From IMG/VR virus record IMGVR_UViG_3300030398_000007: a DNA stretch of 64,000 bases, one strand, 5' to 3'. Origin of the DNA: a virus. A program made the position numbers and the translations under genes. Positions 4,330 through 57,983 of this stretch are shown here, one piece after another. The first letter of the stretch is position 1. Each line of letters begins with the position of its first letter. A model generated the notes under the pieces. It saw only the letters and a program-made list of their open reading frames with translations, did not search any database and had not been told where the DNA came from.

Positions 4330-4467
4330 ATATACTCTTTAACAGAATGGCGCCGTAATTCTCCGCCATTTATGGAGGGGATATAAGGCGTGTTATCAAA
4401 AGACTCGGGCTGGAGTCTTTGGCGCGTAGCGCCTAGAAGCCCCTTCCTGAAGGAAGGGGAGCAGTCA
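4330..4467 (+). mobile_element. Miniature IS605-family derivative (LE+RE only, MITE/PATE-like) related to the tnpB element at 45190-46455
   Basis: acagaatggcgccgtaattctccgccat... (LE) joined to aaagactcgggctggagtctttggcgcgtagcgcctagaagc...ggggagcagtcac (RE). The same ends flank tnpB at 45238-46389. Confidence 0.75.
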
Positions 4468-4612
4468 CAGTGATTGGTCCTTGTCATGAGAGAAGATATT
4501 GGCCTTCAGAACTGCCAGTTAAAACATTTGAATCCATTTTATTAACCTGTGGAGATCTTCCGAGAACAATAGAAAAATCCATTGAACTGCGCAATAAAAA
4601 TCTGGAAATGCC

Positions 4613-19598: not shown

Positions 19599-19833
19599 GG
19601 CCGTTATTTCTCCACCTTCGTTTTTAGTGACCACCAGAAGCCCGCTGGCACAATCGGTGCCTTTCAGCGCCTTGATTGACTTAAATTGACGGACATAATG
19701 GGCTCGAACCGAAACGCATAGATCGTGAGGAACGATTTTGCGTGCCTTGTGTTGTGAAACCAATTCGGAGTCAATGGCTTTAATCGTATTGTGAATTATG
19801 TGTTTGTCTTCTGAATGGTTGTTGTAAATTCTT

Positions 19834-20064
19834 TCAAAACAACGAAAGTTTTTTCCCAACAAAATAACCAAACGACAGCACAAAGGCTGTAACAATTATT
19901 GCCTCAACGAAGAAGATAACAGCATAACTACAAACAGCAGAATCTCCTTTGCTAATATAGGCTATAGCTATAGCCAATATTAGCCAAATTAACGTCGCGA
20001 CAAAGGTAACGTACTCCATTTCGTTTCTCCTTATTGTTTTGATTGTTTCCGGTAAAACTGGCAA
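19834..20064 (-). CDS. Small membrane protein
   Basis: Two TM helices. Confidence 0.3.
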   Translation of the reverse strand: MPVLPETIKTIRRNEMEYVTFVATLIWLILAIAIAYISKGDSAVCSYAVIFFVEAIIVTAFVLSFGYFVGKKLSLF

Positions 20065-20279: not shown

Positions 20280-21359
20280 TTAATTAAATTCAGTTCCGCC
20301 TTTTCGTAGCAAATACTCTTCCGAAACAGACTTCAGAATTTTTCTTTCGCCAATCGCCCGAACAACAACCCCTTCCCTCATATGGACTCCGGATCCGGAA
20401 ACGGACTCTTTTCCGCTGGTTAGTTTTTCGATAACAGCCTTTGAAAATGGCCCGACATAAAGAACCGGCGTTTTTTCGGCAATTTTGATCATTTTGGATA
20501 CCAACGATTCTTGATTCCAGACGAATTGACCGTGTTCCTTGGTGGCAACGTCAAACCACCTGAACGAAAGAGTGCCTCCATATGACAAGTCCTGGACGCC
20601 TTTGCCGAACACCTCTCCAAGGACATAAACGGGATTTTCTGAGCGTCCAAACGCTACAAGTAATTGTTCAGATATTTTTTCGACCGCACGAAGGTAAATG
20701 TTATTCTTATTGCGATCGTTGTTTTTAATTGCAAGACCTTTGGCTCCAAGACCCTTGCTAAAAACGGCAATACGTTCGGAGACCAGATTTTCTGAAAAAT
20801 TCGCAGCTGTATCCGGCGGCAAAATAACCAGGCCACAGAAACTGCCATGAATTTTTTCGGTTATTTCGACGCACTCTCCTTCATTGAAAAAATCCGGAAA
20901 CTTCTTGATATTTTCCACGTCGAATGCCAATGTGTTTTCGGTCCCGAGATTGAATACTTCTCCGGCCATTGCCACCGGTATTTCCGGTTCATACTTTTTG
21001 ATACCAAGTTCTGCAGAAACGTCGTCTCCGACTTTTACCTGAATCGTTTTTCCGTCCGGAAGTTCAAGGAGATTGTTTTTTATTGGATAAACAAGTCCCT
21101 GGCTTAACACCCCTCTTAATTTGATTGCCTTGACGCGATTTTTGTTGCTGCCGGCCAGTCGTCCGACAAGACCAAGCTTTTCTATGACCGGCCCCGGCAA
21201 TACGGACGCTTCCGGAATATAAACGGCCATGTCTCCTGATTTGAACATTCCTTTGGCTACAACCGCCCTGTAATCGCCGATCCTGGCCAGATCCAATGCG
21301 TCTGCGTCCGGGTGCGGTTCGATATCAAGTTTGACGACGTCACAAGAAAAGCTGGACAT
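20280..21359 (-). CDS. ATP-dependent RNA ligase (Rnl2/Rnl5-like nucleotidyltransferase) with N-terminal tRNA-binding OB (EMAP/Trbp111-like) domain
   Basis: N-terminal VVKLDIEPHPDADALDLARIGDYRAVVAKG fits the tRNA-binding OB fold; motif I EKIHGSF (KxHG) as in T4 Rnl2 and the DraRnl/NgrRnl ligases. Confidence 0.65.
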   Translation of the reverse strand: MSSFSCDVVKLDIEPHPDADALDLARIGDYRAVVAKGMFKSGDMAVYIPEASVLPGPVIEKLGLVGRLAGSNKNRVKAIKLRGVLSQGLVYPIKNNLLELPDGKTIQVKVGDDVSAELGIKKYEPEIPVAMAGEVFNLGTENTLAFDVENIKKFPDFFNEGECVEITEKIHGSFCGLVILPPDTAANFSENLVSERIAVFSKGLGAKGLAIKNNDRNKNNIYLRAVEKISEQLLVAFGRSENPVYVLGEVFGKGVQDLSYGGTLSFRWFDVATKEHGQFVWNQESLVSKMIKIAEKTPVLYVGPFSKAVIEKLTSGKESVSGSGVHMREGVVVRAIGERKILKSVSEEYLLRKGGTEFN

Positions 21360-22780: not shown

Positions 22781-23476
22781 TCAAGAACCTCTCCCCCACC
22801 CTTTTTCTGCCGAAATGGACGCTCCGGACATTTCTTCCTGAATGGCTCTACGGTCTCTCATGCTAACGGCCATACCGTCTCCAATGATTACATGATCCTT
22901 GACGGCAACACCGAGCAATGTTCCACATTCAACGAGCCTTTTTGTTAACAGGTAATCGTCACGTGAAGGTTCCGGGTCGCCGGAAGGGTGATTGTGGACG
23001 AAAATGACGGATTTAGCAGAATCCCGAATCACCGGAAGAAAGGCTTCTCGAGGGTGTACGAGCGTCATGGACAACGACCCTTCTGAAATTTTATGTATGT
23101 CCAGAACCCGGTGTTTTGAGTCCAGAGTCATGGCGTAAAAAGCCTCTTTTCTGGCGTCCCGAACTCTTCCGTCAAAAACTTTCAAAACGTCAGACGCCTT
23201 ATAAATCTGCTCGCCGCGAACGATCGGATCGTACGCCAGTCTTTCGCCTAACGTCAGGGCGGCTTTCAGCTTTTTTGATTGTTCCGGAGATAGTCTCAAC
23301 ACGTCTCCAAGTTCCGTTTCTGTCATTCTGGACAGGCTTCTGAGGTTGACGTCTTCCGGGCACAATTTTCCAGTAATCCTGGTAACAAGAGACCAGTCAG
23401 GCTCGTCTTTTATGGACTCGGGTGTAACCGGAGTGTTGTCGAACAGACCAAAGATTGGAGCGGCCTTTCTGGTCAC
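22781..23476 (-). CDS. radC: RadC-like JAB/MPN domain protein
   Basis: VHNHPSGDPEPSRDD JAMM motif and helix-hairpin-helix N-terminus. Confidence 0.8.
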   Translation of the reverse strand: MTRKAAPIFGLFDNTPVTPESIKDEPDWSLVTRITGKLCPEDVNLRSLSRMTETELGDVLRLSPEQSKKLKAALTLGERLAYDPIVRGEQIYKASDVLKVFDGRVRDARKEAFYAMTLDSKHRVLDIHKISEGSLSMTLVHPREAFLPVIRDSAKSVIFVHNHPSGDPEPSRDDYLLTKRLVECGTLLGVAVKDHVIIGDGMAVSMRDRRAIQEEMSGASISAEKGWGRGS

Positions 23477-25443: not shown

Positions 25444-26643
25444 ATGGAAAAACTTTATACGGAACTGAAAAACGGAAAACTCAGGCTGTGGGCTGACGTC
25501 AACATGGTCGAATCAGACGCTCTGGCTCAATCTGAAAACGTATCGAGTCTGCCGATACTGGCCGGACCTGTAGCCCTTATGCCAGACGTTCACCTTGGAA
25601 AGGGTGCTACTGTCGGAAGTGTCATTCCGACAAGAAAAGCCATAATCCCTGCTTCTGTCGGGGTCGACATTGGTTGCGGCATGCTTGCTGTAAAATTTAA
25701 CATGCGTGCCAATGATTTGCCTCAAAATTTGTCGTCTGTCAGAAGGGCTATTGAATCTGTCGTTCCAGTCGGGTTTAGCGAAAATACGGAAGAAAAAACA
25801 GATCGTGACGCAAGCCAATTGCTGGCTGGTGGGTTTCGCCGAATAGTCGAAAAAGCACCGGGGTTGTTGGACAACCGAAAAACAAAAGATTCATGGACCA
25901 GACAAATCGGTTCTCTTGGTGGAGGAAACCATTTTGTCGAATTGTCATTAGACGAAGAAGGCTCGGTGTGGCTCATGCTGCATTCTGGCTCACGAGGAAT
26001 TGGAAACGCGATTGGCACCTACTATGTTGAACGGGCAAAGGAGTATTCTTTGTCTATGGGATATAATCTCCCGGACAAGGATCTGGCCTGGCTTGACGAA
26101 GGAACTCCTTTTTTCGACGAATACTGGTTTGCATTGGAATGGGCACAACAATATGCAAGGGAAAACAGGCGTGTCATGTATTCCAGGATCCGTACCGTCT
26201 TAAAAGAGTTTTTTCCGCACATTCAAGTAGAAGGAACAATCGTCAATTGTCACCACAACTATTGCAGTATTGAAAAACTGCCTTCCGGAGAAGAGATTTA
26301 TCTGACGCGAAAAGGCGCAATATCTGCAAAGAAGGACGAATGGGGCATTATTCCCGGGAGCATGGGAACCCGTTCGTTTATCGTCAAGGGACTCGGCAAT
26401 GACGCCTCATATCAGTCCTGCTCGCATGGTGCCGGTAGACGTATGAGCAGAGGAAAGGCCAAGAAAGTTTTTACCCAGGAAGATCTGGCCGAACAAACCA
26501 AGGGAGTAGAATGCCGGAAGGACGCAGGTGTAATCGACGAGATTCCTGGTGCCTACAAAGATATTGACGACGTTATGCGCAGGCAGTCAGACCTGGTGAC
26601 GCCGGTACATGTGCTGAAACAGGTTTTGTGTGTAAAAGGTTAA
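25444..26643 (+). CDS. rtcB: RtcB RNA 3'-phosphate ligase
   Basis: GGGNHFVEL, HSGSRGIGN and C-terminal SCSHGAGRRMSRGKAKK (catalytic His); length 399 aa. Confidence 0.85.
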   Translation: MEKLYTELKNGKLRLWADVNMVESDALAQSENVSSLPILAGPVALMPDVHLGKGATVGSVIPTRKAIIPASVGVDIGCGMLAVKFNMRANDLPQNLSSVRRAIESVVPVGFSENTEEKTDRDASQLLAGGFRRIVEKAPGLLDNRKTKDSWTRQIGSLGGGNHFVELSLDEEGSVWLMLHSGSRGIGNAIGTYYVERAKEYSLSMGYNLPDKDLAWLDEGTPFFDEYWFALEWAQQYARENRRVMYSRIRTVLKEFFPHIQVEGTIVNCHHNYCSIEKLPSGEEIYLTRKGAISAKKDEWGIIPGSMGTRSFIVKGLGNDASYQSCSHGAGRRMSRGKAKKVFTQEDLAEQTKGVECRKDAGVIDEIPGAYKDIDDVMRRQSDLVTPVHVLKQVLCVKG

Positions 26644-32548: not shown

Positions 32549-33276
32549 GCGTGGCTAAAAATGAAGTTACTGACGGTCTTGTGAAACTGTTTGGTCGGCG
32601 ATATAGCTACAGACAACAGAATAGACGCTTTTCGATTGCCGGATTGTCGGAACCTTTTTATTACAAAAAGCCGGATTCGAGAACAAGAACCACTTCTTAC
32701 GTTGAAGACCTTTTTGGTGATTCTCAGTCGGCACTTGCAAAAGCAAAACTGGAGTTTTCAATTGGTGCCGAAGCAGGTGATCTTAAATTAAATTTTTACC
32801 TTTTATCTGCCCCAAAAGACGCAGATTATTATCATTCTTTTACATGGCTTGGACGGTTGCCAGTAGACAATCCCGTTCTTTCCGGAAAAACAACTCACGT
32901 CCGTCAGATTTTCGAATCCAGTATCAATATGTATGGCTCCACTGGCAAGAGCCCTTTTGTCCCTTGTCTGGAAGTTTTGGGGGCGACCGAACTCGGACTG
33001 AATCACTCAGATCTCTCTAAACATTTGCCGAGGCTTTTAACCTGGTGCTTTAGACGTACTCCTATGAGCATGAGAACACATTCAGAATCGTTGCCGGACA
33101 CCACTTCGTTTGCCCTTTATCCTGAAGGTTTTGGCTATATCCCAAAAGAAGCCACATTGAAAGACATTATGATTTTTTTAACAGCTTTGGACAGACTGCC
33201 AAACGAAAGTGAAACACTTGAGTTGAGAAAACGGATTGCGTCAAGGGCAAAAAATGATTTGGATTTTGGCAGATAG
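32455..33276 (+). CDS. Novel paralog family member D (C-terminal GYIPKEATLKDIMIFLTALDRLPNESETLELRK)
   Basis: Conserved tail; the start is possibly at 32542. Confidence 0.45.
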   Translation: MGKKIGNGVDTGNAFAGRSYPDYFRQQKGMLSVAKNEVTDGLVKLFGRRYSYRQQNRRFSIAGLSEPFYYKKPDSRTRTTSYVEDLFGDSQSALAKAKLEFSIGAEAGDLKLNFYLLSAPKDADYYHSFTWLGRLPVDNPVLSGKTTHVRQIFESSINMYGSTGKSPFVPCLEVLGATELGLNHSDLSKHLPRLLTWCFRRTPMSMRTHSESLPDTTSFALYPEGFGYIPKEATLKDIMIFLTALDRLPNESETLELRKRIASRAKNDLDFGR

Positions 33277-33378
33277 AAACTGTCAAACAGATATTGAAAA
33301 TATTTTTATTGGATCTGAGACTTCACTGGGAAAAATTGGACAAGAAATACATTTTTAGAATCAAACTGGAGGAATTTT

Positions 33379-33906
33379 ATGGGTGATTTTTTGCAGGAAC
33401 TTCTTCAATCTCACCTGGCTGCACTGAATGAATCGGAAGCCTTATCCAAAAAACAGGAAAACGATCTGTCCATTAAGAAAATGGAACTCGAATATCATGC
33501 GACTCGAACCATTCAAGAGTCAGAACGGTTTTGGGCAAAGGCTCAGGTGCTGGCAAGCGTTCTTGTCAAAACGGAAGAGGCACCTGAAAGGAAAGAACAA
33601 CAACATGACGATTCAAGAGATAGGGTCACTTTAAGAATGTGTTTGAACGAAATGGCGAACAATATCCATTCTTGTCAGGCAAAAGCCCTGGACTTTCTCC
33701 AGGAGGAAAATCGATCGGCTTCTTTGCGTCAGTCAGTTTCTGCCATTAAGGAACAAATCGAAAAAGAGGAACAAATCACTCGAGAATATCTGAAGACGTT
33801 ACAGGAAAACGAAATTGAACGACTAAGAAACGAACAGCAGCAGCAACAGCAAGCAGAAATGGAGGCACGTCGACAAAGAGAAGCAGAATTGTTAAATACC
33901 CGATAA
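33379..33906 (+). CDS. Coiled-coil protein with poly-Q stretch
   Basis: Heptad-rich sequence ending NEQQQQQQAEMEARRQREAE. Confidence 0.35.
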   Translation: MGDFLQELLQSHLAALNESEALSKKQENDLSIKKMELEYHATRTIQESERFWAKAQVLASVLVKTEEAPERKEQQHDDSRDRVTLRMCLNEMANNIHSCQAKALDFLQEENRSASLRQSVSAIKEQIEKEEQITREYLKTLQENEIERLRNEQQQQQQAEMEARRQREAELLNTR

Positions 33907-35491: not shown

Positions 35492-36811
35492 TCACCTTGA
35501 CGATCGTTCGGAATCGGTCCTTGATTTTTGTGGCCCATGTACATTCTGGAAATTTTTGGATATTTTCTCGGCCAATCCTTTTGGCACCCCACTTTGTTTG
35601 GCTATCTCTGGCCATTGCTGAACGGACTCTTCCACCTCTTGAACGATTCCGGTTATTTCTGTTCTGGAAAAATTAAACTCTTCGCCAAGATTCATAATGT
35701 TTTGCCATACCGGTTTTTTGTATTCTCCCATAACGGAAGTTGAATGCTCTCCGCCTGGACCATACGAGAACAACAAATCATATGCCGGAGAAGCCTTCCA
35801 CTTCCCATTTTTGTCCATAATGAAAGAGAAGTTTCTGGCATGATCGTCACGATTATGTGTGACAATATTGAAGACCATTTGGCGAAACAAAGAAATCGCG
35901 TTTCTTTTGTCTCCGGTTAATTTTGCGGATATTGACAGCAAGTGTTTGTAGTCGCAAACTGACTGCCCTGGTTCCATTCCCAATAGTCCGCCAAGGGTAT
36001 GCTGGTGGACCCGATTACCAAACACATTGTCGGTTCCATTTGAAGAATCTTGAACACGATCAAATCTTTGTATGCAAAATGCCTTTTGCTTCCCCACCTG
36101 AATCAGTCTTGTTTCAGGTATTGTTATACCGGCACGCCTGGCCAAAATAGAATAGGCATATTCCGTTTCGCACTCGTAATGGCCAAGGGCTTCTGATTTT
36201 ACGGGAAATTTGACAATGTGCGGCACATATCCGGCCGGTATGTCTTCCGTTCCCGAAATGACATTGTCATTTGGATCAATTCCGGCCAGTATTTTTGGCC
36301 TTGCACCTCCCGGCGAACCACCAAGTCTGGCGAGTTTTGGCAAAACGTCGCTTGCCGTTCCTTCGTGAACATGTTCTACGCCAGCCAGTAGGTCGGAAAG
36401 GTCAAGCAAGGAAGAAGATTTGTCCGATTCTGACCTGTCCGGATAATAGACGAGAGCGCCCATGCCTCTGCTGCCAATAAGCGCCAGGCGATCCAATGGC
36501 CCGACCTCGGAAGGGGAGAGACCATTTGCTGCAAGAAAACGATCGACGACAAGCCGGCCCCACCCGTCAGAAAGAGATTCCGCAAAGGCAAATGGCAGGC
36601 CCTGAGAATATCGTCCTGTTGGACCAAATACGGGTTGTTCGGAAAGCGGCAACTTAAACGGAGAAATCTGTAAGCCACTTTTGACAAACTCTTTTGAATA
36701 TTGGAAGGCCACTTTCCCGTCCACCAGCGCCAGGATCCCGACAACAATCTCCTTTTCAGGCAAAAACCTTAAACAAACAGACACTTTTTCGAGTTTTTTA
36801 AATGCAGCCAT
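35492..36811 (-). CDS. hipA: HipA-family serine/threonine kinase toxin
   Basis: GSRGMGALVYYP...LARLGGSPGGARPKIL and THNRDDHARNFSF kinase motifs; 439 aa. Confidence 0.8.
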   Translation of the reverse strand: MAAFKKLEKVSVCLRFLPEKEIVVGILALVDGKVAFQYSKEFVKSGLQISPFKLPLSEQPVFGPTGRYSQGLPFAFAESLSDGWGRLVVDRFLAANGLSPSEVGPLDRLALIGSRGMGALVYYPDRSESDKSSSLLDLSDLLAGVEHVHEGTASDVLPKLARLGGSPGGARPKILAGIDPNDNVISGTEDIPAGYVPHIVKFPVKSEALGHYECETEYAYSILARRAGITIPETRLIQVGKQKAFCIQRFDRVQDSSNGTDNVFGNRVHQHTLGGLLGMEPGQSVCDYKHLLSISAKLTGDKRNAISLFRQMVFNIVTHNRDDHARNFSFIMDKNGKWKASPAYDLLFSYGPGGEHSTSVMGEYKKPVWQNIMNLGEEFNFSRTEITGIVQEVEESVQQWPEIAKQSGVPKGLAEKISKNFQNVHGPQKSRTDSERSSR

Positions 36812-37123
36812 TCAATCTCCTTTATGCCTGGCGCGTTTTCTTTCCGACTTGTTTTCTAGAGCAAAAAGATCTGGAATAACCTTTGACTCAAACATTGAAG
36901 ACAGATCGTCCGTTTTATGAATGACAAATGCCAGTTTGACAAGACTTTTCAGAGATATCTGTCCTGATTGCTCAAATTTTTTGAGCGTCCCATGCGAAAC
37001 GCCAGAACGGTTTGCCAAATCCATTTGAGTAAGGTTCATTTTAATTCTGCAAGTTTTGAGGTCTTTGGCTATTTTTAACATGATTTCTTTTTCTGTGAGC
37101 AAAACCGGAAATTCCGTATCCAT
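36812..37123 (-). CDS. hipB: HipB-like XRE-family HTH antitoxin
   Basis: MNLTQMDLANRSGVSHGTLKKFEQ HTH; adjacent and upstream of hipA. Confidence 0.7.
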   Translation of the reverse strand: MDTEFPVLLTEKEIMLKIAKDLKTCRIKMNLTQMDLANRSGVSHGTLKKFEQSGQISLKSLVKLAFVIHKTDDLSSMFESKVIPDLFALENKSERKRARHKGD

Positions 37124-37285
37124 AAAATACTCCGTTTAAAATAACAAAAGACAAAATAATATCTATTAAATTGACGCCTTCACTATTTCGGATATTATTT
37201 TATCAGTAACATAAAGCAAAGTCAATGAGCACGAGCTGTGTACTAAATGAATGAATTGGCTCCTTGTTGGACATTACAAACTCCA

Positions 37286-38404
37286 TTATCTGACCAAATC
37301 AATCTCCCCTTCCAAAACCCTCTCCACCAGCGTCGTGCTTTTTCCACTTCGATAATCCTTCACTAAAGCCGCCGGCGCAAAAACATACGACCGGACCCTA
37401 TGACCAAAGTCTGCTGGACCACCAGCCCGGAGATTGGCCTCCTTTTCTTTTCGCCTGGCAGCTCGTTCTTTCTCCGACAAAAGAGATTTCAGCTTTTCTA
37501 TGGCAATGGCCCTGTTCCGTTCCTGTGTTCGTTCCTCCTGGCAGGTTACGACAATTCCGGTCGGTTTGTGTGTTAGTCGAACGGCCGTTTCGACCTTGTT
37601 GACGTTTTGTCCGCCCTTTCCGGAAGACCGAAAGAATCCGATCTCGATATCCTCCTGCAAGATTTCTGTCCGGCTTTCTTCCAGCGGTTCTGTCCATACG
37701 GAGACTCCGGCAAAGGAGGTTTGCCGCCTCCCTCCCCTGCCGTATGGAGAAAATCGGGACAATCGGTGGGAGATCCGGTTTCAGAAGTAAGATCCGACAA
37801 GAGAATGGTCTCTGATTTCAACAGAACGCGCCTGAATCCTGTCTCCGTTTCTTCTGCGTCAATGATTTGCAGGTCGCGTCTTTTTAACAGAATGGCGCCT
37901 TGTATCTCCGCCATAAATGGCGGAGATACAAGGCGTGTTTCACTATTTTTATTGTAACGCACAACATGATATAATGCTTATCATGAAGAATAAAAAGACT
38001 CGGGCTGGAGTCTTTGGCGCGTAGCGCCTAGAAGCTCCTTCCTTTCAGGGAGGGGAGCAGTCACCCTGGCATAACCAAGATACATGGCGGCCAGCATTTG
38101 CTTCAATCCCTCCCGTTCCGGCCAGAATGGACATAAAGAGATTCTCTTCCTGGAGGGATTGTTTGGCGAAACAAGAATCGAGACTGTTTGATTTCTGATA
38201 TTGGATTAACAGAGGAATTGTTTCGGCAAGAATATTTATGGCCTGGTTCGATTCTCTTTCAAAAAAAAGAATGTTGTCAGAATCCAGATACTGGCATTGA
38301 AGAGCTTCTTTTGCCGTTTCCAGGTCGTCAATTGCGGACGACATACGTTTATGTGCCGAAAGCATAATCGAGGCCTGACGAAGCGTTTTGAGCGGTCTGG
38401 ACAA
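37286..38404 (-). pseudogene. Class I peptide chain release factor gene interrupted by the MITE at 37889-38066 and carrying a frameshift at a T-tract near 37775
   Basis: N-part (38404-38070) contains ILAGTGGIEA (RF2 AGSGGTEA). After the MITE: AEETETGFRRVLL (RF ETGVHRLVRKSPFDS), then in the -1 frame [13 protein letters not shown]...[21 protein letters not shown] (GGQ domain). The first ~20 codons of the 37962 ORF are encoded by the MITE inverted repeat. Confidence 0.65.
37889..38066 (+). mobile_element. Miniature IS605-family derivative (LE+RE), second copy, inserted in the release-factor gene
   Basis: acagaatggcgccttgtatctccgccat... (LE) to ...ggaggggagcagtcac (RE); ~90% identical to 4330-4467. 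Confidence 0.75.
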
Positions 38405-38626
38405 TAGCGGTGTGTTAAATGAGACTGACTTCTTAAGACAAGAGCCTCTAGCTGGGAAAGGTCAAAGACTCCTCCGGAGTTCTCCTCCGAGGGCTAAGAG
38501 TTGAGCGCCTGAAAAATTATTGAGCACTGGTTTCTTGATAGACATGTTCGTACTCCTTTTGATCTTTGAAATGTTGTTCGTAAAAGAAACGACTTTTGTA
38601 TTGTATTCCATTCTAGGCTTTAATGT

Positions 38627-39263
38627 CTATCTGGTAACGGAAAAGTCCTCTGCCTTATCAAGACCGCTCAAAAAATCCTCAATCTGTTTGAAAGATTTAA
38701 CGGCAATGTGAATCCCATATTTCTTTTGACAATTCTCCAAAAATTCTTGAGAGAATGGCTGATATTTTTTCCAGGCCGCTTCAACCGCCTCTTTCGGGAC
38801 ATTGTGCACGTTTGGATATTTTCCGTGCATGTCCAGAATGTCCACGTCATGTCCCAATTTTAAATAGGGAATGAGACTTTCTTCGCCAAGAAAGGTATTG
38901 GCGACAACAACGTTTTCACCTTTTGAAAGGGCTTCAGAAAACCGATTTCAGACACCACTTGTGGGCCTTTCAGGATTTTTCTGGTGTCCAGTTGTATTTG
39001 CCCTTTGTCAAAAAGAAATATTGGTCGGCCTCAAAATGGCGGACCTGAAATTTTTTGGAAAGCCGTTCGGCGGCAGTCGTTTTTCCGGATCCTTGTGGCC
39101 CACGAATGATTATCAAATGTCCTTTTTTGTCCGTTTCTGCTTCTGCTGGTTCCGCTTCTTTTAACGACCTTCTGGAAAATTCTTCATTCAAAATTTTTAA
39201 AACATAAAAATCCGGCACGAGATCCTTTTTTGACGTTAATGAAATCCCAAATCGTTTGGACAA
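38627..39263 (-). pseudogene. P-loop NTPase/kinase-like gene broken by >=2 frameshifts (fragments 38970-39263 and 38627-38935)
   Basis: Walker A IIIRGPQGSGKTT in the upstream fragment; another frame continues GENVVVANTFLGEESLIPYLKLGHDVDILDMHGKYPNVHNV into ORF 38627-38857. Confidence 0.45.
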
Positions 39264-41314: not shown

Positions 41315-42523
41315 TTAAGCAAATACCAGGTCGGTTCCTGCCAATGCGTAAGACTCTACGTTTGATCCCATGCTTTGGGACTCTCCTTCTGACGAAGGAG
41401 AACAGGCTAACTGGGCGTGTCCCGCCCTTACGGCATTCAATGCGCCGACATAGTCGGCGTTCGCGGTAAAACCGCATTTGACACAGGCAAAGGTCTCTTG
41501 AGTCTTCCGATTGTCCGGAGAGACGTATCTACACGTCTCGACCGGACAGGTCTGACTTGTATACGCCGGAGGAACTCGCAAGAGCTGTCCGCCGTTCCAT
41601 GACAGCTTGTACTCGAGTTGTCTCCGGAACTCTCCCCACCCAAGAGAAAGAATCGCTTTGTTCAGTCCCTTCTTGCCCTTCCCTGATTTCGTCATTTTCT
41701 GAACCTTCAGATCCTCGACGACCACCACCGCGTGGTTTTTGCTGATCGCGGTCGTCGCTTTATGCAGAAAGTCCTTTCTGACGTTTGTAATCTTTTCATA
41801 GAGACGACCAAGCTTTAGCCTGGCTTTTGATCGGTTCTTCGAACCTTTCTTTTTTCTTGAAAGGCTTTGGTGCAGTTGCGTCAGTCGTTTCTCAAACCGC
41901 TCCACGAGGTTAGGGGCGGTGATTCCTTCGTTCTCTCCGGTGGAGAACGCCGCGAAGCGAGCGACGCCGAGATCAATTCCGAGAACTTCGCCTTTTGGAG
42001 TGACAGGATCGATCTCTTGTGCTGTGAGAATGGAAACGTACCACTTCCCGCAGGAGTATCGTATCGTGGCCTGGCGGACGGTGCCTTTCAGGGCACGACT
42101 CTTCCGGTACCGGATCTCACCGAGTTTGGGGAGCGCGATCCGGGAACGCTCTTCGTCGACACGGACGGTTTTCTTGTCCGGAAAGGTAATCGTATCGTTT
42201 TTTCCCTTTTTGTGGAAAACTGGGTGGTCCGCTTCTTTTTTGAAGAAGCGGATATAAGCCGTGGTTAGGTTCTCCACAGCGCATTGCAGGCCCTGAGACT
42301 GGGTTTTTCTGAGCCATTCCGTTTCTGGATCCTTTTTCCAGGAGGTGAGTGTTTTTGCCAAGTAAACATACCCTGGAAAGGGTTTGTTATCCTTGTGAAG
42401 ATCTTCGACCAAACTCAAGGCTTTATTGTAGACAAACCGACAGGAACCGGCATACTGCCGGAGAAGCAAGTCCTGTTGTTTTGTCGGTTCCAGTCTAAAG
42501 GAATAGGCTTTTAATATTTTCAT
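41315..42523 (-). CDS. tnpB: TnpB (IS605 OrfB-family RNA-guided nuclease)
   Basis: 402 aa; N-terminal KILKAYSFRLEPTKQQ, RuvC-like core, C-terminal Zn-finger CPVETCRYVSPDNRKTQETFACVKCGF and RuvC-III NADYVGALN. Confidence 0.85.
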   Translation of the reverse strand: MKILKAYSFRLEPTKQQDLLLRQYAGSCRFVYNKALSLVEDLHKDNKPFPGYVYLAKTLTSWKKDPETEWLRKTQSQGLQCAVENLTTAYIRFFKKEADHPVFHKKGKNDTITFPDKKTVRVDEERSRIALPKLGEIRYRKSRALKGTVRQATIRYSCGKWYVSILTAQEIDPVTPKGEVLGIDLGVARFAAFSTGENEGITAPNLVERFEKRLTQLHQSLSRKKKGSKNRSKARLKLGRLYEKITNVRKDFLHKATTAISKNHAVVVVEDLKVQKMTKSGKGKKGLNKAILSLGWGEFRRQLEYKLSWNGGQLLRVPPAYTSQTCPVETCRYVSPDNRKTQETFACVKCGFTANADYVGALNAVRAGHAQLACSPSSEGESQSMGSNVESYALAGTDLVFA

Positions 42524-43128: not shown

Positions 43129-43205
43129 TGGCGCCCCTGGCAGGATTTGAACCCGCGACCCTCTCGTTCGTAGCGAGACGCTCTTATCCTCTGAGCTACA
43201 GGGGC
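43129..43205 (-). tRNA. tRNA-Arg (anticodon ACG)
   Basis: Reverse complement gives acceptor gcccctg/caggggc-g-CCA, anticodon stem tctcg/cgaga with loop ctACGaa, T-stem gcggg/cctgc. Confidence 0.8.
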
Positions 43206-43244
43206 ATTAAAGTTTGGATCGTCCTTCGGACTCCAGAATCTTAT

Positions 43245-43320
43245 TGGTGGGTTGCCTCGGAGTCGAACCGAGAGTCTCGCAGCTTAAAAGGCCGGGGTTT
43301 TGCCATTAAACTAGCAACCC
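43245..43320 (-). tRNA. tRNA-Lys (anticodon TTT)
   Basis: Reverse complement gives acceptor gggttgc/gcaaccc-a-CCA, anticodon loop ctTTTaa, T-stem ctcgg/ccgag with loop TTCGACT. Confidence 0.7.
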
Positions 43321-44349: not shown

Positions 44350-44712
44350 ATGGACGAACGAAAAAAGGTCGAACAAAATATTCTGGCCGAAGAAAAAGCA
44401 TTAAAAGAGTGTATGGTTCTTTTCAAAACAGGCCTGGACCCTGCCAACTGGCCAAGATTGCAGCGACGATATATGGCACAGGCTTTTGTTCCGAAAGACG
44501 GTCCTGTCAATCCGGAGCATGCCAAAGGATTGAGACTTATGGGGCTTTTTTATCCTGGCCGTACCACATTTGCTCGTGTGCCGGAATGGGCCAAGGAATT
44601 TCTGGTCGACCGGGATCCGGATATTGAACACATTGCCGAACGAATCCGGGCAGATATGGGAAAACTGATTGAGCATTACAGAGAGGACAGAACCAAATGT
44701 CGGACGAAATGA
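44350..44712 (+). CDS. Hypothetical protein, putative partner of the downstream NTase (16-nt overlap)
   Basis: Translational coupling to the 44697 gene. Confidence 0.35.
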   Translation: MDERKKVEQNILAEEKALKECMVLFKTGLDPANWPRLQRRYMAQAFVPKDGPVNPEHAKGLRLMGLFYPGRTTFARVPEWAKEFLVDRDPDIEHIAERIRADMGKLIEHYREDRTKCRTK

Positions 44713-45224
44713 TCGACAAAGAAATGGCCAAAAAGCTTATGCTGAATGTTGTTAAACAATACAACTCGGCAACAGGAAAAATTCCGCAAGTTTTGTTTGT
44801 TGTCGGCGGAACCGCTATGGCCTTTCATAACATGCGAGAACAGTCTGAAGACGTTGATCTGTTTTTTAAAGATCTGGATTTTGAATATGCTGTAAAACAG
44901 GTAGAGAAAGAAACAGGATATCGTATTGACGTAACTTCAGAAAAGAACTTATGGGGGGATCTCGTTATTCCGGATATCGAAAAAGACGCAAAAGTGACAG
45001 ATTTTTTTGTTTTTGAAGGACACGACGTCCAGATTGCGGCTATTAGTCCAGAAACGCTTGCTGTGATAAAGGCCTCGTCAATGAGAGAAAAAGATCGTCT
45101 CGACATTCCTCTAATTCTCAAAAAAACAACACCGGAAGAAATACTGGCCAGATTTGCTTGTTTGTGGACCAGTCAGAGACCAAGTGTCGCCAAAGAAGCC
45201 CTCAGTGACTGCTCCCCTCCCTGA
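44697..45224 (+). CDS. AbiEii-like nucleotidyltransferase; 3' end fused to the IS right end
   Basis: VLFVVGGTAMAFHNMREQSEDVDLFF (GGTA...R.S.DVDL). The last ~13 codons (SVAKEALSDCSPP) are encoded by the IS RE sequence. Confidence 0.5.
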   Translation: MSDEMIDKEMAKKLMLNVVKQYNSATGKIPQVLFVVGGTAMAFHNMREQSEDVDLFFKDLDFEYAVKQVEKETGYRIDVTSEKNLWGDLVIPDIEKDAKVTDFFVFEGHDVQIAAISPETLAVIKASSMREKDRLDIPLILKKTTPEEILARFACLWTSQRPSVAKEALSDCSPP

Positions 45225-46455
45225 AAGGAAGGAGCTTCTAGGCGCTACGCGCCAAAGACTCCAGCCCGAGTCTTTTTATATTTGTAGCGGCATTTCTGTT
45301 TCTGTCCTGTTTCTTGCCGCATTTTGGACACTTATACACACGGACATTCAAAGGCATTTTCTGCCTATGTCCACAACCAGGTGTAGAACAGTCCTGAGAC
45401 GTGTACGCAGGATCGACTTTCACAAACTCTCGACCAGCTTCTGCCGCTTTGTTCGAGAGTATGGAGAGAAAGGTTCCCCACGCAGTGTCGTATTGCGCAT
45501 TGTTGATCGAAGCATATTCCGAAACCATTTCTGAAGGGGTCAGATCTTCGACCACGATAATTCCGTACTTGCCGACAAGAGATTTTGCTGTTTTATGGAA
45601 AAAATCCTGTCTTTGGTTAAAAACTTTCTCGTGAATCTTTGCAACAATTTTTTTCTTCTTCTCTTTATCTTTGCCGGGATTATTTTTTTGCAGGTCTAGC
45701 CTTCGTTGTTCCTGAGCCAAACGCTTGGCACTTTTTTTGAGAAATTTCGGATTCTGGACGATCGGATCCTCGTCTTCGGAAGTGGTCAGAAATTCTTTGA
45801 TTCCCATGTCGATCCCGACCGATAGAGGACTATTTGACAGACGTTTAGGCTCTACGTTGTCACAAGAAAAACAAACGAACCATTTGCCAGTACTTGTTCT
45901 TTTAATCGTGCAGGTTTTTATTTTTCCTTCAAGACTTCTGTGTGTGAGAACTGAAACCTTCCCAACACCAAAAAGTTTCAAAACATTTCCTTGCAATGAA
46001 AATCCCACGTTGTTTTGTGGGAACGTTAAGGAATCGTACCGGTCTTTACCTTTGAATCTTGGATACCCAGGGTCTTTGGCTCCTTCTTTAAGTCTTCTGA
46101 AAAAAGACTGAAAGGCCAGATCGACTCTTTTGACAACGTCTTGAAGAACCTGTGAATGAACGAACCTCAGAGAAGGTCGAATCTTTTTTAGACAAGGAAG
46201 CATGTTCTGCTGTTCGTGATAAAATAACGAAACGCCATACCATTTCCATGCGTTTTTTCGGTGTTCTAGCATGTAGTTGTAGAGCCACCGGCACTCTTCA
46301 AGCCGCTGAGAGAGAAGTGTCTTTTGATTTTTTGTCGGATACAGCCGATATTTGAAAGTTTTTTTCATAATGAGTATTATATCATACATACACTACAAAT
46401 AGAAGGGGTCGCCTTATATCCCCGCTATGAATGGCGGAGAATTACGGCGCCATTC
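45190..46455 (-). mobile_element. IS605-family (IS1341-like, tnpB-only) element with defined LE (46390-46455) and RE/omega-RNA scaffold (45190-45240)
   Basis: LE gcattttaacagaatggcgccgtaattctccgccat (rc) and RE ...aaagactcgggctggagtctttggcgcgtagcgcctagaagctccttcc...ggggagcagtcac; the same ends form the miniature copies at 4330 and 37889. Confidence 0.8.
45238..46389 (-). CDS. tnpB: TnpB (IS605 OrfB-family RNA-guided nuclease)
   Basis: 383 aa; FKYRLYPTKNQ N-terminus, C-terminal Zn-finger CSTPGCGHRQKMPLNVRVYKCPKCGKKQDRNRNAATNI. Confidence 0.85.
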   Translation of the reverse strand: MYDIILIMKKTFKYRLYPTKNQKTLLSQRLEECRWLYNYMLEHRKNAWKWYGVSLFYHEQQNMLPCLKKIRPSLRFVHSQVLQDVVKRVDLAFQSFFRRLKEGAKDPGYPRFKGKDRYDSLTFPQNNVGFSLQGNVLKLFGVGKVSVLTHRSLEGKIKTCTIKRTSTGKWFVCFSCDNVEPKRLSNSPLSVGIDMGIKEFLTTSEDEDPIVQNPKFLKKSAKRLAQEQRRLDLQKNNPGKDKEKKKKIVAKIHEKVFNQRQDFFHKTAKSLVGKYGIIVVEDLTPSEMVSEYASINNAQYDTAWGTFLSILSNKAAEAGREFVKVDPAYTSQDCSTPGCGHRQKMPLNVRVYKCPKCGKKQDRNRNAATNIKRLGLESLARSA

Positions 46456-46530
46456 TGTTAAAATGCTGTTGAATTTTGTCCATATCTCCTTTTGCTGCAT
46501 AAAGTTCTTCCGAAACGCATTTCTTTTTTC

Positions 46531-47803: not shown

Positions 47804-48013
47804 CCTCATTTTTCTATTCGACGAATATTGTTGGGTTGTCTTTTGGGGTTTCTCCAAAAGGTCCTGTAGAATATATTCAAGCTTTTCTATTTACTCTCTT
47901 AATCTTTGGATTCATGACTTTTGCAATATGTTTGATAAGTGAAAAAACGGAATGAAATAAAGTCTTCATAAAATGGCAACGTTTAAAAAACACTCTTGAA
48001 AGGAGAAACAATC

Positions 48014-48334
48014 ATGAACAGTTGCATGGAAAAAAGTATCGAACAAATTCGTGAAACAAATTTCAGAAACGAAAAAAGAAGAAAGGAGCGTTTGGATTTT
48101 GTACGAAACATTCTCAAGAAAAATGACTGGGCTATTTCTGAACTTGAAAGAGAGGGGGTGGACATGTCCGAAATTGTCAGAATCATAAACAGGTGTGAAG
48201 GTTCTGACATTACGGTTCATGAGGTTGAATGTGTCAAAGACGAACGAGACAGGCTTTGCGAACAAGTATTTCTATTTGTTGTAATTATAGTTTATGGGGG
48301 GGTTGTTGTGTGGTTATACTCAAAATTAATATAA
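48014..48334 (+). CDS. Hypothetical protein with C-terminal TM
   Basis: RBS AAAGGAGAAACAATC preceding ATG at 48014; preceded by the duplicated 80-bp leader. Confidence 0.4.
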   Translation: MNSCMEKSIEQIRETNFRNEKRRKERLDFVRNILKKNDWAISELEREGVDMSEIVRIINRCEGSDITVHEVECVKDERDRLCEQVFLFVVIIVYGGVVVWLYSKLI

Positions 48335-48468
48335 GTGAAAAAACGGAATGAAATAAAGTCTTCATAAAATGGCAACGTTAAAAAAACACTCTTGAAAGGA
48401 GGAACAATCATGAACGGTTGCGCAGTTTTCGTAGTTCTTTTATTTGTGTTTACTGTAGTTTTTGAGGT

Positions 48469-49440: not shown

Positions 49441-51291
49441 TTATTCGTTGTTCCGATCCTTTATAAACCCAAACGCCATTTTTTCCGCACTTGGAAGTGT
49501 CGAGTCAACACCTGTCAATTCCTTCAAATAAAACGCCTTTACGTCGACCCAGACACTCCTCAAATCCTTTTTCGCCCGCAGCCCTTTCTCGACTGTCTCC
49601 AGCCCGGCATTTAAAAAGGGGACTTTGTCTGGCGTTGTTCCCATTTCTTTGGCAAAACGCTTGTGCATTCTGGCAAAGATCGGATTGGCATGTTCCGGTT
49701 TCGGTCTTGGCGTTTCGATCACTTCAAAACGCGACTGCAATGGTTCGTCTATTTTCAGAATGTTATTGGCCGTCGCAATCAGGTTCAAGCTTGTCACGTC
49801 AATATGCCCTTCAAGAAAGTCGTCGTACAGGTTGCTTGCATTTCGGTCGAGATACGCAAGAAGTGCCTGTTGTGCCGTTCCGTATCTTTCTTCCGTGTTC
49901 TGTTTGTCGATTTCGTCCAGGAGAAACAACGGATTGGCCACGCCGCATGAGGCCACAAAAGACAGTATCCGGCTTGGTTTCGGCTTCTTCCACCACCGGC
50001 TCAATGAGCTGATATATTCGACTGAAGAAGACGCTCCGGCAAAACTAAAGGTATCAAACGGCAGTCCGATAAGCCCCGCAAAGTCGGCCGCCCATTCTGT
50101 CTTCCCAATACCTGGAGGTCCGACCAGCAAAATCGGAGGAATGGTGATAACGGCTTGAGTTTTTGACTGTTCGGCAAAATAGATCCGGCCACGAAGACAC
50201 TGCAGCACCCATGCCGTGATTTTGGACAGCCATGGAAATTCGGTGTCCATGGCTTTTTGAATGTCGGCCAGTTTCTCCGTTCCTCCGGAAAAGGTGGCCA
50301 GTGGAATCCCCTTGCCTAACGGCAAGCTTTCCAGAATCCTGTCGAATTCTCCCTTGCCTGATTCTCCCTCATAAGCGTTTGCGTGTCTGATAAAAATATG
50401 TGTTGATTCAGGCAATGTTTTATTCACGCTTGAGCTTGTTGAGGCTATTTCTGGAGAACTTGACATTGTCATTTTTCCAGAGCTTTTTTGTGTATTATTG
50501 GTTTCCAAAGTGTTGTCGTCTAGAATTTCTTCTAGCCATAGATCATTGTCAGAGCCAGAGCATGGGAATTTGTCTTCCACATATTCTTCTGCCAACCACA
50601 TATTTCCATTTTCTATGACGATTTCTTTTGTTTGTTTCTTGTTGTCAGTATAGGTCGAAAATGAGAACTGATTTTCACTTGCGTTTTGGTTTTTCGTTTT
50701 ATCAATACTGGAGCGCCAGGAAACGGTCTTTTTCGTCAATAGGTTTTTTTCTGTATGCTCCTTTAAGACAAGAACGGCCGCCTTTGTATCATAACCCAAA
50801 GCCAATAAGGCCGTCGTAAACGGTACTGGAAACTCGTAAAGCTCAATACGGCTGTTTATGTAAGTTGCCGCGTTCATGACAATGAGCTTGGGACGGAATT
50901 CGTTGCTCAATGAATCCTGTATTTGTTGTTTAAGTTCTTGTGGAGACAATCCCGGAGATAAGATTTGCACACGAAGATTCTTGCTCGCCAATTTCTTTTC
51001 TTTGACTGAAGCATTCTCTAGAAGGGACTGAAGCGCCTTCGAAATAATCGCTTCTGTTGCTCCGATAGAGATATAAAGGACTTGTGCCGGAGGCTTCTCT
51101 TCCGAATCAAAAATTTCATACAATTGGTTGTTCGCGCCGGCAACGCATGTGGCAATAGCCAGACCGACCAGATTGTTGTCCGAATCGTCCGGAAGAAGAA
51201 CAGTACCAAGAGTTCCCTTTTGGAAACCTGAAAAAATTTCGTCGTCAACATTAGACGAATTGTCGAGGAGTTCTTTAACGTCAATGTTCAT
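49441..51291 (-). CDS. Lon-like AAA+ ATPase without protease domain, N-terminal RecA/KaiC-like degenerate domain (paralog 1)
   Basis: ILLVGPPGIGKTE Walker A, NPLFLLDEIDK Walker B identical to Lon, LIATANN sensor-1, LQSRFEVIETPRP arginine-finger/sensor-2 region; ends ~80 aa after the AAA+ module with no S16 protease domain. Confidence 0.7.
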   Translation of the reverse strand: MNIDVKELLDNSSNVDDEIFSGFQKGTLGTVLLPDDSDNNLVGLAIATCVAGANNQLYEIFDSEEKPPAQVLYISIGATEAIISKALQSLLENASVKEKKLASKNLRVQILSPGLSPQELKQQIQDSLSNEFRPKLIVMNAATYINSRIELYEFPVPFTTALLALGYDTKAAVLVLKEHTEKNLLTKKTVSWRSSIDKTKNQNASENQFSFSTYTDNKKQTKEIVIENGNMWLAEEYVEDKFPCSGSDNDLWLEEILDDNTLETNNTQKSSGKMTMSSSPEIASTSSSVNKTLPESTHIFIRHANAYEGESGKGEFDRILESLPLGKGIPLATFSGGTEKLADIQKAMDTEFPWLSKITAWVLQCLRGRIYFAEQSKTQAVITIPPILLVGPPGIGKTEWAADFAGLIGLPFDTFSFAGASSSVEYISSLSRWWKKPKPSRILSFVASCGVANPLFLLDEIDKQNTEERYGTAQQALLAYLDRNASNLYDDFLEGHIDVTSLNLIATANNILKIDEPLQSRFEVIETPRPKPEHANPIFARMHKRFAKEMGTTPDKVPFLNAGLETVEKGLRAKKDLRSVWVDVKAFYLKELTGVDSTLPSAEKMAFGFIKDRNNE

Positions 51292-51494
51292 GTGGCGCCT
51301 CCAAAATATTACCATAGTAGTTGTTATACGATATAATGATCGTACCACAAACTATTCTGGTTGAATCAAAAAGTGGAGACGTTACAGACTGTTTTAAAAT
51401 AGCGAGCGAATGGAATTTTGAGACAACACCATTGGGGCGGCAAAAAACAAAAGACACTTTCGCCGCCACATGGATTTAACCGGCATGGAGAAGA

Positions 51495-53396
51495 CTAAAA
51501 ACCGATCGTCTTTTTTGTTCCATTTGGCATACGGACACTCGTTCCGGTAATTTCTTCAAGAAACGCGGCTCTCATGTTTTGCCAGATTTTTCGTAGGTCC
51601 TCTTCTTTTGTCAAACCTTGTTCGATTGTTTTGACAACCTTATCTGAAATGTGAATATCTTCTGTATCGACGTTCATTTCTTTAGCCAAACGTTTACGCA
51701 TGTTTTTTAGTATTGGTGGAACATGCTCCGGTCGAGGTCTTGGTGTTTCAATGATCTCAAGTCTGGACAACAATGGTTCGTCAATCTTTGACATGTCGTT
51801 GGCTGTCATAATCATATTCAATTTAGACACGTCGATATAACCTTCCAGAAAATCGTCAAATAAATGAGTGGCGTTTCTGTCGAAATAGGCCAAAAGGGCT
51901 TGTTGTGCCGTACCGGCATATCTGTTTTGGCTTTGTTTGTCGATTTCGTCCAATAAAAGTAAGGGATTGGCGACCTTGCAATCTGCAACAAATGACAAAA
52001 TCCGGCTTGGTGTTGGCGTTTCCCACCACCTGCCAAAAGAAGAAACGTTTGCATATCCAATTGACGTACCGGCAAATCCGAACGTGTCAAAAGGAACATT
52101 CAAATATTTTGCAAATGTTGCGGCCCATTCTGTTTTTCCAATTCCTGGAGGTCCAACCAGCAAAATGGGAGGAACTGAAATAACAACTGGTCGATTGGAT
52201 TTTTCGGCAAAATAAAGTTTCCCCTGCAATGATTGAACAATCCACGTTGTTATTTTTTCAAACCATGGAAATTTTGTGTCCAGTTTGTTTCTTATTTCCT
52301 GGAGCTTTTTTTGACCTCCTGAAAATGTAATAAGAGGAAGTTTTTTTCCGGCAGGAAGATTCATTGTGATTCTTTTAAAATCATGAAATCCATTTCTGCC
52401 AGATTCATACGGTTTAAAGCTTTTGACAAAAATATGTGTCGGCATAGATTGTTCGACTTCTTGCATAGTTGTAGAATCTACATAGACAATCTTGTTTGTT
52501 TGTTCCTCTTCTTTTCTCTCTTCGTTTTTCTTTCCCGATCCTCCTTCGTCGGCACTTCTCTTTGCGGACAATTGGTCTTTCAACTTTTCCATTAAATCAA
52601 GTTTTTGCTTCAATAAGTCGATTTGTTCTTTTGAATAATTTTCTTTCTTGATTGATCTATTAAATTGTTTTGTAACGCGTTTAATCTTTTCATTTTCAAA
52701 CACAAAACTCTCTTCATATTTTTTGTCTCCCTCCCAAAAAAAACATGTGTATTTCATTGGGCTTGCCAGAGCCATGGTGTTGTCCACATACAGTCTCCAC
52801 TCGAATGGAGGCTTGACGGGTCCGGTTTTTTCATTCAACTCCCTCAAAAGAAGAATGGAAGAACCGGTTCTTATCGAAAAAGACAAGAGACCATTAGCCA
52901 ATTTGTTATTGAACCCTTCTTTTTCGACATTGATATTTATATAATCGCTGGCGTTTATGACGACAAGATCGGGAGTGCCTCTTTCTTCGCTTATTGAAAA
53001 AAGTGTTTTGGTTATCTCTTCAGTCGAAATGGTCGGAGACATTGTTTCAACGAAAAACAATTCTTGCAGAATCTCTTTTTGAGATTCCGTAAGGTCATTT
53101 AAAAATCGACGCGTTGCGCTTTTAACTGTGGTTTCTCTGTCTCCAATCGAAATATAAAAAACCTTTCTGGTTCTTGGAGCACTTTTATGTAATGAAAAAG
53201 GTTTTTTGGACGAAAGCATTCCGGCCAATTCCGGGTGGCCTCCCGACGCAGTCAGAGCAATCGCTAATCCAATCATATTTTTGTCCGGACTGTCCCCGTG
53301 GAGAATAACTCCAAGCTCCCCTTTGTAAAACCCAAGAAAAATCTCGTCTTTGACGGGATCCGGTATTTGCAGCAATTTATTGATATCCAGGCTCAT
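51495..53396 (-). CDS. Lon-like AAA+ ATPase without protease domain (paralog 2)
   Basis: ILLVGPPGIGKTE, NPLLLLDEIDK, IMTANDMSKIDEPLLSRLEIIETPRP; same architecture as paralog 1. Confidence 0.7.
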   Translation of the reverse strand: MSLDINKLLQIPDPVKDEIFLGFYKGELGVILHGDSPDKNMIGLAIALTASGGHPELAGMLSSKKPFSLHKSAPRTRKVFYISIGDRETTVKSATRRFLNDLTESQKEILQELFFVETMSPTISTEEITKTLFSISEERGTPDLVVINASDYININVEKEGFNNKLANGLLSFSIRTGSSILLLRELNEKTGPVKPPFEWRLYVDNTMALASPMKYTCFFWEGDKKYEESFVFENEKIKRVTKQFNRSIKKENYSKEQIDLLKQKLDLMEKLKDQLSAKRSADEGGSGKKNEERKEEEQTNKIVYVDSTTMQEVEQSMPTHIFVKSFKPYESGRNGFHDFKRITMNLPAGKKLPLITFSGGQKKLQEIRNKLDTKFPWFEKITTWIVQSLQGKLYFAEKSNRPVVISVPPILLVGPPGIGKTEWAATFAKYLNVPFDTFGFAGTSIGYANVSSFGRWWETPTPSRILSFVADCKVANPLLLLDEIDKQSQNRYAGTAQQALLAYFDRNATHLFDDFLEGYIDVSKLNMIMTANDMSKIDEPLLSRLEIIETPRPRPEHVPPILKNMRKRLAKEMNVDTEDIHISDKVVKTIEQGLTKEEDLRKIWQNMRAAFLEEITGTSVRMPNGTKKTIGF

Positions 53397-57953: not shown

Positions 57954-57983
57954 AATAAACCGTCTAAGAAAAAGGAGGAGACA

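Follow-up and report, generated by a model that had tools for sequence, protein, structure and literature searches.

The gene of release factor 2 (RF2), prfB, carries a Shine-Dalgarno (SD)-like GGAGG, a 3-nt spacer, and CUU UGA C, the layout of the autoregulatory +1 frameshift of RF2. Insertion sequences (ISs) of the IS200/IS605 family and their miniature palindrome-associated derivatives use a fixed target, cause no target duplication, and have subterminal palindromes. PrfH (RFH) has been described as acting with RtcB2 in the rescue and repair of ribosomes (PMC1586002, PMC9304027). For an IS605-type TnpB, TTTAA is a documented insertion site and transposon-associated motif (TAM), and the guide scaffold ends in UUCAC (PMC11043419). 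We analyzed a release factor (RF) gene on the minus strand of IMG/VR virus record IMGVR_UViG_3300030398_000007, of which a stretch of 64,000 nt was studied (hereafter the window); it is part of a 67-kb Joint Genome Institute (JGI) metagenome contig and holds no housekeeping genes. The gene is very probably a dead accessory class I RF paralog derived from RF2, which lies in a probable mobile segment and was destroyed in several steps, one of them the insertion of a 177-bp miniature IS.

Structure of the disrupted gene

The minus strand from 37000 to 38700 was read in all three frames, and the lesions were called by DNA alignment to contigs with an intact gene, namely, L001 to L003, which encode the relatives P0001 to P0003 (80 to 87% protein identity), and L004 (ACXJ01012491.1). 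The features of the gene are as follows.

37286..38545, minus strand: whole RF2-like pseudogene, from ATG 38545 to TAA 37288-37286 (three-frame reading and relatives)
38553..38558, minus strand: Shine-Dalgarno AAGGAG, 7 nt 5' of the ATG, kept in L001, L002, and L003 (AAGGGG in L004)
38462..38545, minus strand: open reading frame (ORF) 0, ORF0, 27 codons (MSIKKPVLNNFSGAQLLALGGELRRSL), closed by the in-frame TGA 38464-38462
38461..38475, minus strand: RF2-type +1 frameshift site, GGAGGAGT CTT TGA C (= GGAGGAGTCTTTGAC), with SD-like GGAGGAG and a spacer of 3 nt from GGAGG to CTT
38386..38389, minus strand: lesion a, A4 run where contig L021 has A5, a 1-nt deletion that shifts the frame after THRYCPDRS (alignment)
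38099..38100, minus strand: lesion b, junction of a 14-nt deletion (CCAAGCCTGGACCA in relatives; alignment)
37888..38064, plus strand: lesion c, 177-bp element between the codons for YLGYAR and LKRRDL (alignment, termini)
37770..37773, minus strand: lesion d, 2-nt TC insertion (GGATCTCCCACC versus GGATCCCACC) between ETG and SHRLSRF (alignment)
37746..37755, minus strand: T-tract GATTTTCTCC, not a lesion, shared by the intact L002 and L004 genes
37742..37750, minus strand: SPY codons at the position of the RF2 SPF stop-codon-recognition tripeptide
37607..37615, minus strand: GGQ peptidyl-tRNA hydrolysis motif, invariant in the alignments

A preliminary description of this DNA had placed the gene at 37286 to 38404. 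Its 3' end was right, but the true start is the ATG at 38545, and the frameshift site had been overlooked. The recoding motif GGAGGNNNCTTTGA has a single match in the window, with 0.02 expected by chance. The site is kept in L001 to L004, is present in L005, L010, L011, and L013, and was seen in every family member examined; the frame after the shift agrees with the homologs, so that a programmed +1 frameshift is predicted. In the intact alleles, the 27-codon ORF0 is followed by a 337-codon frame with PCRF, RF-1, GGxEAQxW, SP(Y/F), and GGQ. In the window, the reading frame changes four times between the recoding site and the TAA at 37288-37286.

The four lesions differ in kind. Lesion a was found in the window contig alone and would be either a recent (the youngest) mutation or a homopolymer miscall. 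Lesion b takes out QAWT of the conserved GGxEAQxW and shifts the frame; it lies just after GGIEA, and the upstream fragment, whose position on the minus strand and end in ILAGTGGIEA were confirmed by frame translation, is consequently out of frame before the element is reached. Lesion c holds two stop codons in the RF frame, and its length of 177 nt is a multiple of three. When all four lesions are repaired, the coding sequence after the shift is 1014 nt long, equal to that of L001 to L004 (five sequences).

Downstream of the element, the frame resumes at LKRRDLQIIDAEETETG and not at AEETETG, as had been thought. The part with the GGQ domain is there as described (SPY...GGRRQTSF...GGQ), but the -1 shift suggested to lie in a T4/T5 tract is not: the intact L002 and L004 genes have the very same tract. 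Since SHRLSRF, upstream of the tract, is already in the downstream frame, the shift is placed at the TC insertion. The interval singled out earlier, 37770-37780, thus does contain the real shift (37770-37773), with a cause other than the T-tract. The ORF from 37962 begins in the element, as claimed, with its first 25 codons rather than about 20, although the source is an element without terminal inverted repeats. The comparison with intact relatives bears out the general picture of an accessory RF gene inactivated and split by a miniature IS copy.

Recurrence of the lesions in independent assemblies

Six Logan assemblies, each from a different sequencing run, encode the 158-aa downstream product exactly. 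All six have the TC insertion and the junction between the element and the RF gene, and every contig ends inside the element palindrome, as is expected of a repeat. The JGI contig L021, 3081 bp long and with 99.87% identity, covers the gene in full and has lesions b, c, and d, with A5 at the position of lesion a. Lesions b, c, and d are genuine population alleles. Matches were obtained by exact look-up of the 158-aa product and of the ATG-start 106-aa product; exact look-ups of the 119-aa and 129-aa ORFs gave none, probably because other start codons had been called.

These data bear on the possibility that the disruptions are assembly or sequencing artefacts and that the real gene is intact. 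Lesion a, located in an A-run and absent from the 99.87%-identical L021, would fit such an explanation, as would the frameshifts in two other genes of the same contig. However, lesions b, c, and d recur in the independent JGI assembly, the TC insertion and the element junction are shared by the Logan assemblies, none of the three is a change in homopolymer length, and the remnant of a neighboring AAA_33 gene bears a nonsense substitution. We consider it very improbable that the gene is intact.

An RF2-derived paralog

The repaired protein matches the Pfam families PCRF (5.7e-16) and RF-1 (8e-34), and the same domains have been precomputed for all relatives. Aligned to the NCBIfam hidden Markov models of RF1, RF2, and PrfH, it was closest to RF2, in line with the earlier assignment to the RFs: it scored 221.8 bits on prfB (TIGR00020), about 150 to 158 on RF1, and 85 on PrfH (TIGR03072), and the intact members scored 224 to 251 bits on prfB and 80 to 93 on PrfH. 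The cutoffs are 370 bits for TIGR00020 and 166.65 bits for TIGR03072. The canonical RF2 controls P0012 and P0067 reached 442 and 487 bits on prfB; unlike them, the family falls below the RF2 cutoff. The full-length members (window, L004, P0001, and P0010) have about 115 residues before GGxE and align to prfB positions 12 to 345. By these scores and alignments the protein is an RF2-derived paralog, neither an orthodox RF2 nor a PrfH. Of the former label "prfH/prfB-like", the prfB part holds and the PrfH part does not, the scores being below 166.65 bits.

With canonical RF2 the family shares PCRF and RF-1, the GGxEAQxW helix-tip motif, a tripeptide at the SPF position, GGQ, and an ORF0 with a recoding site. 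It differs in its identity of about 45% over domains 2 to 4, a much more divergent N-terminal domain, SPY in place of SPF in this clade, and a shorter C-terminus. The tripeptide is SPY in the window, L004, and P0001 to P0003, and SPF in P0004 to P0010, which is a conservative change. Unlike canonical RF2, the gene sits among accessory or mobile genes beside hipBA and not in a housekeeping context, and it is dispensable here, being dead while UGA is still a stop.

With PrfH the family has in common that it is an accessory class I RF paralog of sporadic distribution found with conflict-related genes, and that short relatives also lack domain 1. The differences are that domain 1 is kept, together with the RF2 frameshift site and an SPF-like tripeptide, and that no rtcB is adjacent. 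It had been pointed out that PrfH normally goes with RtcB and that an rtcB is present in the window, and the gene could accordingly be, or have been, a PrfH-type rescue factor working with the RtcB 11 kb away. The window has, besides RtcB (1.2e-120), an RNA ligase, a CCA-adding-like enzyme, and a tRNA array, and there are relatives of about 240 aa that, like PrfH, are without domain 1. However, the members stay at 80 to 93 bits on TIGR03072 and score far better on the RF2 model, and the full-length members have the N-terminal domain as well as the RF2 frameshift site. The rtcB (25444-26643, plus strand) lies 10.6 kb from the RF gene on the opposite strand with unrelated genes between, and none was found next to the RF gene on contigs L001 to L014. 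The short forms keep a relic of the frameshift site with broken frames upstream, which suggests that they are truncated derivatives. A PrfH-type factor is thus very unlikely.

In the short relatives (L005 9759, L011 103, and L013 441), GGAGG...CTT TGA stands 160 to 240 nt upstream of the called start, and the frames between the recoding site and the called start are broken; the ORF0 of L011 and L013 has 6 codons (MIWRFL, then a stop). This arrangement suggests that the forms of about 240 aa are N-terminally degenerated derivatives, or that they carry a retained regulatory leader.

The inserted element

The element that splits the gene has been compared with further copies in the window and in L004.

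From 37888, plus strand: left end of the 177-bp element, a palindrome with a perfect stem of about 17 bp (the tnpB-sense strand is the plus strand)
37990-38064, plus strand: right end of the element, 75 nt, 100% identical to the full-length IS
37883..37887, plus strand: TTTAA target, directly 5' of the left end
45205..46457, minus strand: full-length parent-type IS, 1253 bp, with a 383-aa TnpB at 45238-46389 and the same termini as the miniature
4343..4468, plus strand: second miniature copy, 126 bp, 3' of TTTAA, with shared termini

The 383-aa ORF matches HTH_OrfB_IS605, OrfB_IS605, and Cas12f1-like_TNB in Pfam and is therefore a TnpB. Together with a further miniature copy in L004, four copies could be compared; in all four, a 5' TTTAA is directly followed by CAGAATGGCGCC, the 3' end is GGGGAGCAGTCAC, and the flanks are unrelated. 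The empty site in L004 reads TATGCCAGG joined directly to TTGAAAGGAC, with no target duplication. The sharing of ends with the IS copy at 45205-46457 and the miniature at 4343-4468 agrees with the miniature IS copy described before, with a length of 177 bp (37888-38064) instead of 178. Inverted repeats at the ends were not found: neither end is an inverted copy of the other. The left one is a hairpin of about 17 bp and the right one consists of separate hairpins, that is, subterminal palindromes. By its termini and its target, TTTAA on the 5' side, the element is a non-autonomous derivative of the IS200/IS605 (TnpB) family. At the insertion position, TTTAA is present in the window lineage alone; the intact alleles have TTCAA, TTTAG, or similar and no insertion. 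Because only the window lineage has TTTAA there, the hit was limited to that lineage.

The closest described systems are IS605-type TnpB elements with a TTTAA target/TAM, such as TnpB7 of Sulfolobus islandicus (PMC11043419), and their miniature palindrome-associated derivatives. Shared with them are the position 3' of TTTAA, the lack of target duplication, subterminal palindromes, a TnpB parent, and a similar right end, ...GTCAC here and UUCAC immediately before the guide there. The differences are that the context is bacterial, that no more than about 75 nt of the right end is left in the miniature copy, and that TnpA was not seen among the ORFs scanned in the window, where small ORFs were not searched systematically. 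At gathering thresholds, Rfam found tRNAs only, with no frameshift element and no TnpB guide RNA family.

The miniature is a mosaic relative to the full-length IS, with a right end that is 100% identical over 75 nt and a left end that is 83% identical. This could have come from gene conversion, from selection on the guide-RNA scaffold, or from another parent for the left end. A 175-aa DUF6036-like nucleotidyltransferase ORF (44697-45224, plus strand) ends in ...SDCSPP before its stop, residues that the right end of the full-length IS (45205) encodes, and the RF fragment likewise ends in ...GDCSPP and a stop; the full-length IS has probably truncated the 3' end of the DUF6036-like gene. The window has a second, different TnpB gene of 402 aa at 41315-42523 (minus strand).

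Relatives and selection

A search of 5.8 billion proteins yielded three close intact relatives (P0001 to P0003, 80 to 87% identity), a group of about 240 aa with about 55% identity, one full-length protein with 49% (P0010), and ordinary RF2s with about 45%. L004, with an uninterrupted gene and 94 to 98% DNA identity across the flanks, was picked out by a family-specific degenerate motif. An exhaustive profile search of 1.84 billion representatives returned three 50%-identity clusters at 389 to 428 bits, the next matches having at most 254 bits. No relatives were found in the GTDB species genomes with a protein query, nor did the degenerate motif match in the 185,579 species-representative genomes of GTDB or in IMG/VR, and the protein searches of PLSDB and INPHARED gave distant canonical RFs only, with at most about 37% identity. 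The RFs of Lak and huge phages (PMC7162821) are similar in that the RF gene is borne by a probable mobile element that also has a tRNA array and a CCA-adding-like enzyme, but the identity to the Lak phage RFs is at most about 33%, and there is no sign of stop-codon recoding here.

Among the intact alleles, the ratio of nonsynonymous to synonymous substitution rates (dN/dS) is 0.12 to 0.17, which indicates purifying selection, and the paralog is therefore presumably functional where it is intact. The private changes, nonsynonymous to synonymous, are 16:13 in the window, 9:16 in L004, 5:12 in L002, 10:9 in L003, and 25:45 in L001; those of the window are consistent with recent relaxation. The alleles are themselves mosaic. 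Between L004 and L002, the synonymous rate (dS) is 0.12 in the 5' part and 0.47 in the 3' part (window 38065-38463 versus 37286-37887), and the window is 83% identical to L004 in the 5' part and 94% downstream, which suggests recombination among RF alleles.

Loss of the gene

The gene was lost through several changes. A 177-bp element of the IS200/IS605 family, with a TnpB parent 7 kb away, inserted 3' of the lineage-specific TTTAA, probably mobilized in trans by a TnpA-type transposase. The 14-nt deletion removed the conserved QAWT, the TC insertion shifted the frame, and the change from A5 to A4 is a fourth lesion, confined to the window contig.

It has also been proposed that the gene might be rescued by transcript processing. 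A functional gene would require that the element be removed at the RNA level or bypassed and that the frameshifts be programmed, so that a full-length factor is made. The element is indeed a multiple of three with flanks in the same frame, and the family does use one programmed +1 frameshift. However, the element has two stop codons in the RF frame, the 14-nt deletion removes a part of GGxEAQxW that hardly varies, if at all, among family members, neither the TC insertion nor the A-run deletion is matched in the intact relatives, which encode a continuous 1014-nt frame, and the neighboring AAA_33 gene has also decayed. We have set this proposal aside as hardly credible.

TGA ends 10 of the 25 Pfam-supported ORFs in the window, and none of its 14 tRNAs is a suppressor, indicating a standard code. 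A canonical RF2 must then exist elsewhere, and we infer that the paralog is dispensable. That it was the only RF2 of the organism, lost along with a reassignment of UGA, has next to no probability: no other prfB is present in the window and frame 1 stays open from the TGA at 38462-38464 to 38404, but TGA is in use as a stop, there is no suppressor tRNA, the intact relatives match the post-shift frame and not the read-through frame, and the protein is below the RF2 equivalog cutoff, unlike the canonical controls.

Several points weigh against the reading of the gene as a dead accessory paralog on a mobile segment. Lesion a could be a homopolymer miscall, the near-identical L021 being without the A4 run. 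No canonical prfB was seen; in a window without housekeeping genes, its existence follows from stop usage. The excess of private nonsynonymous changes in the window is small, and no TnpA-type transposase was noticed among the ORFs scanned in the window, where small ORFs were not searched systematically.

Genomic context

The RF gene is flanked by two features, its sole recurrent neighbors, the second of them in some contigs only.

35492..37123, minus strand: hipB-like helix-turn-helix gene (36812-37123) and hipA (35492-36811), immediately downstream; the adjacency is kept in L002, L004, and L015 to L021
38630..39281, minus strand: remnant of an AAA_33 P-loop kinase-like gene, whose intact product has 325 aa in L002 and L003

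The AAA_33 remnant is missing its first 105 or so codons and has GGG changed to TGA in the 38941-39030 block and a 1-nt indel near 38939. The gene is paired with the RF gene in L002, L003, and the window; an obligate pair is not claimed, because L004 carries a nucleotidyltransferase gene upstream instead. In L002 and L003, the intact 325-aa protein contains an HCxxGxxRS motif, and before the kinase domain it matches Cys-phosphatases of Pfam weakly, below threshold, which hints at a polynucleotide kinase-phosphatase; sequence matches in the PDB were uninformative for this protein.

Other genes of the window are concerned with RNA. A CCA-adding/poly(A)-polymerase-like gene with an HD domain (13866-16252, plus strand) is frameshifted near 15757, with residues 1 to 633 in one frame and 629 to 780 in another and one G lost from CTGGCAG; its cluster mates have 757 to 780 aa. 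Within 7 kb there are an Rnl-type RNA ligase (20280-21359, minus strand), the RtcB gene, a DUF5131 gene (19239-19895, minus strand), and a RadC gene (22781-23476, minus strand). A 12-tRNA array (930-1999, plus strand) comprises Met, Gln (two), Thr (three), Lys (two), Arg (three), and Ile, and a separate Arg-ACG/Lys-TTT pair (43129-43320, minus strand) duplicates array members. Judged from gene content, the tRNA array, the CCA-like enzyme, the ligase, RtcB, DUF5131, and RadC resemble a gene set for RNA repair and defense against ribotoxins. A tRNA array in a region without housekeeping genes points to a mobile element.

The window also contains two-partner secretion genes, DNA methylases, hipBA, and two TnpB elements. 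A type I-F CRISPR-Cas system (54813-62788) consists of csy1-like, a 289-aa ORF without assignment, csy3, cas6f/csy4, cas1, and cas2-3, and in its array (62826-63233+), 28-nt repeats (GTTATCCACGACATATGTGGCTTAGAAA), of which there are at least 7, are separated by spacers of 32 nt. At 49441-51348 and 51495-53396 (minus strand), a tandem pair of paralogous genes encodes AAA-ATPases of about 634 aa. A 91-nt direct repeat, 97% identical (47935-48025 and 48331-48421), includes a ribosome-binding site and a start codon, suggesting duplicated small genes. A 585-bp segment (33222-33806) that overlaps most of an extra 175-aa ORF (33379-33906) is absent from the collinear L004. Of ten neighbors of unknown function, PHROGs identified one as an HNH endonuclease and placed two in families of unknown function.

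L004 belongs to the 'unassigned contigs' in the data set on the acid-mine-drainage biofilm of Richmond Mine, and the study describes a putative Leptospirillum plasmid of about 250 kb (PMC2745766). The locus is probably located in an accessory, mobile segment from an acid-mine-drainage community; its assignment to the Leptospirillum plasmid is speculation.

Implications

We suggest, tentatively and as a rather unlikely view, that the intact members are backup termination or rescue factors borne by mobile elements and made mainly when RF2 activity falls. In such a scheme, the CUU UGA site may gate synthesis, and an attack on the translation apparatus may be what lowers RF2. The factor may travel with the tRNA array, RtcB, the RNA ligase, the CCA-adding-like enzyme, the kinase/possible phosphatase, and hipBA. 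Speculatively, the right end of the element might give a guide RNA into CCTGGCATAACC, with which TnpB acting in trans would cut uninterrupted alleles that have TTTAA and so help to fix the disrupted allele.

The event itself is routine, the loss of a dispensable accessory gene to a transposon and two to three small indels. An annotation pipeline would list three small, unrelated ORFs at this locus and overlook the recoding site. The locus offers a filled site and a near-isogenic empty site for a miniature element of the TnpB family with the target TTTAA, and it puts on record a rare subfamily, derived from RF2, in which the autoregulatory frameshift site has been kept.

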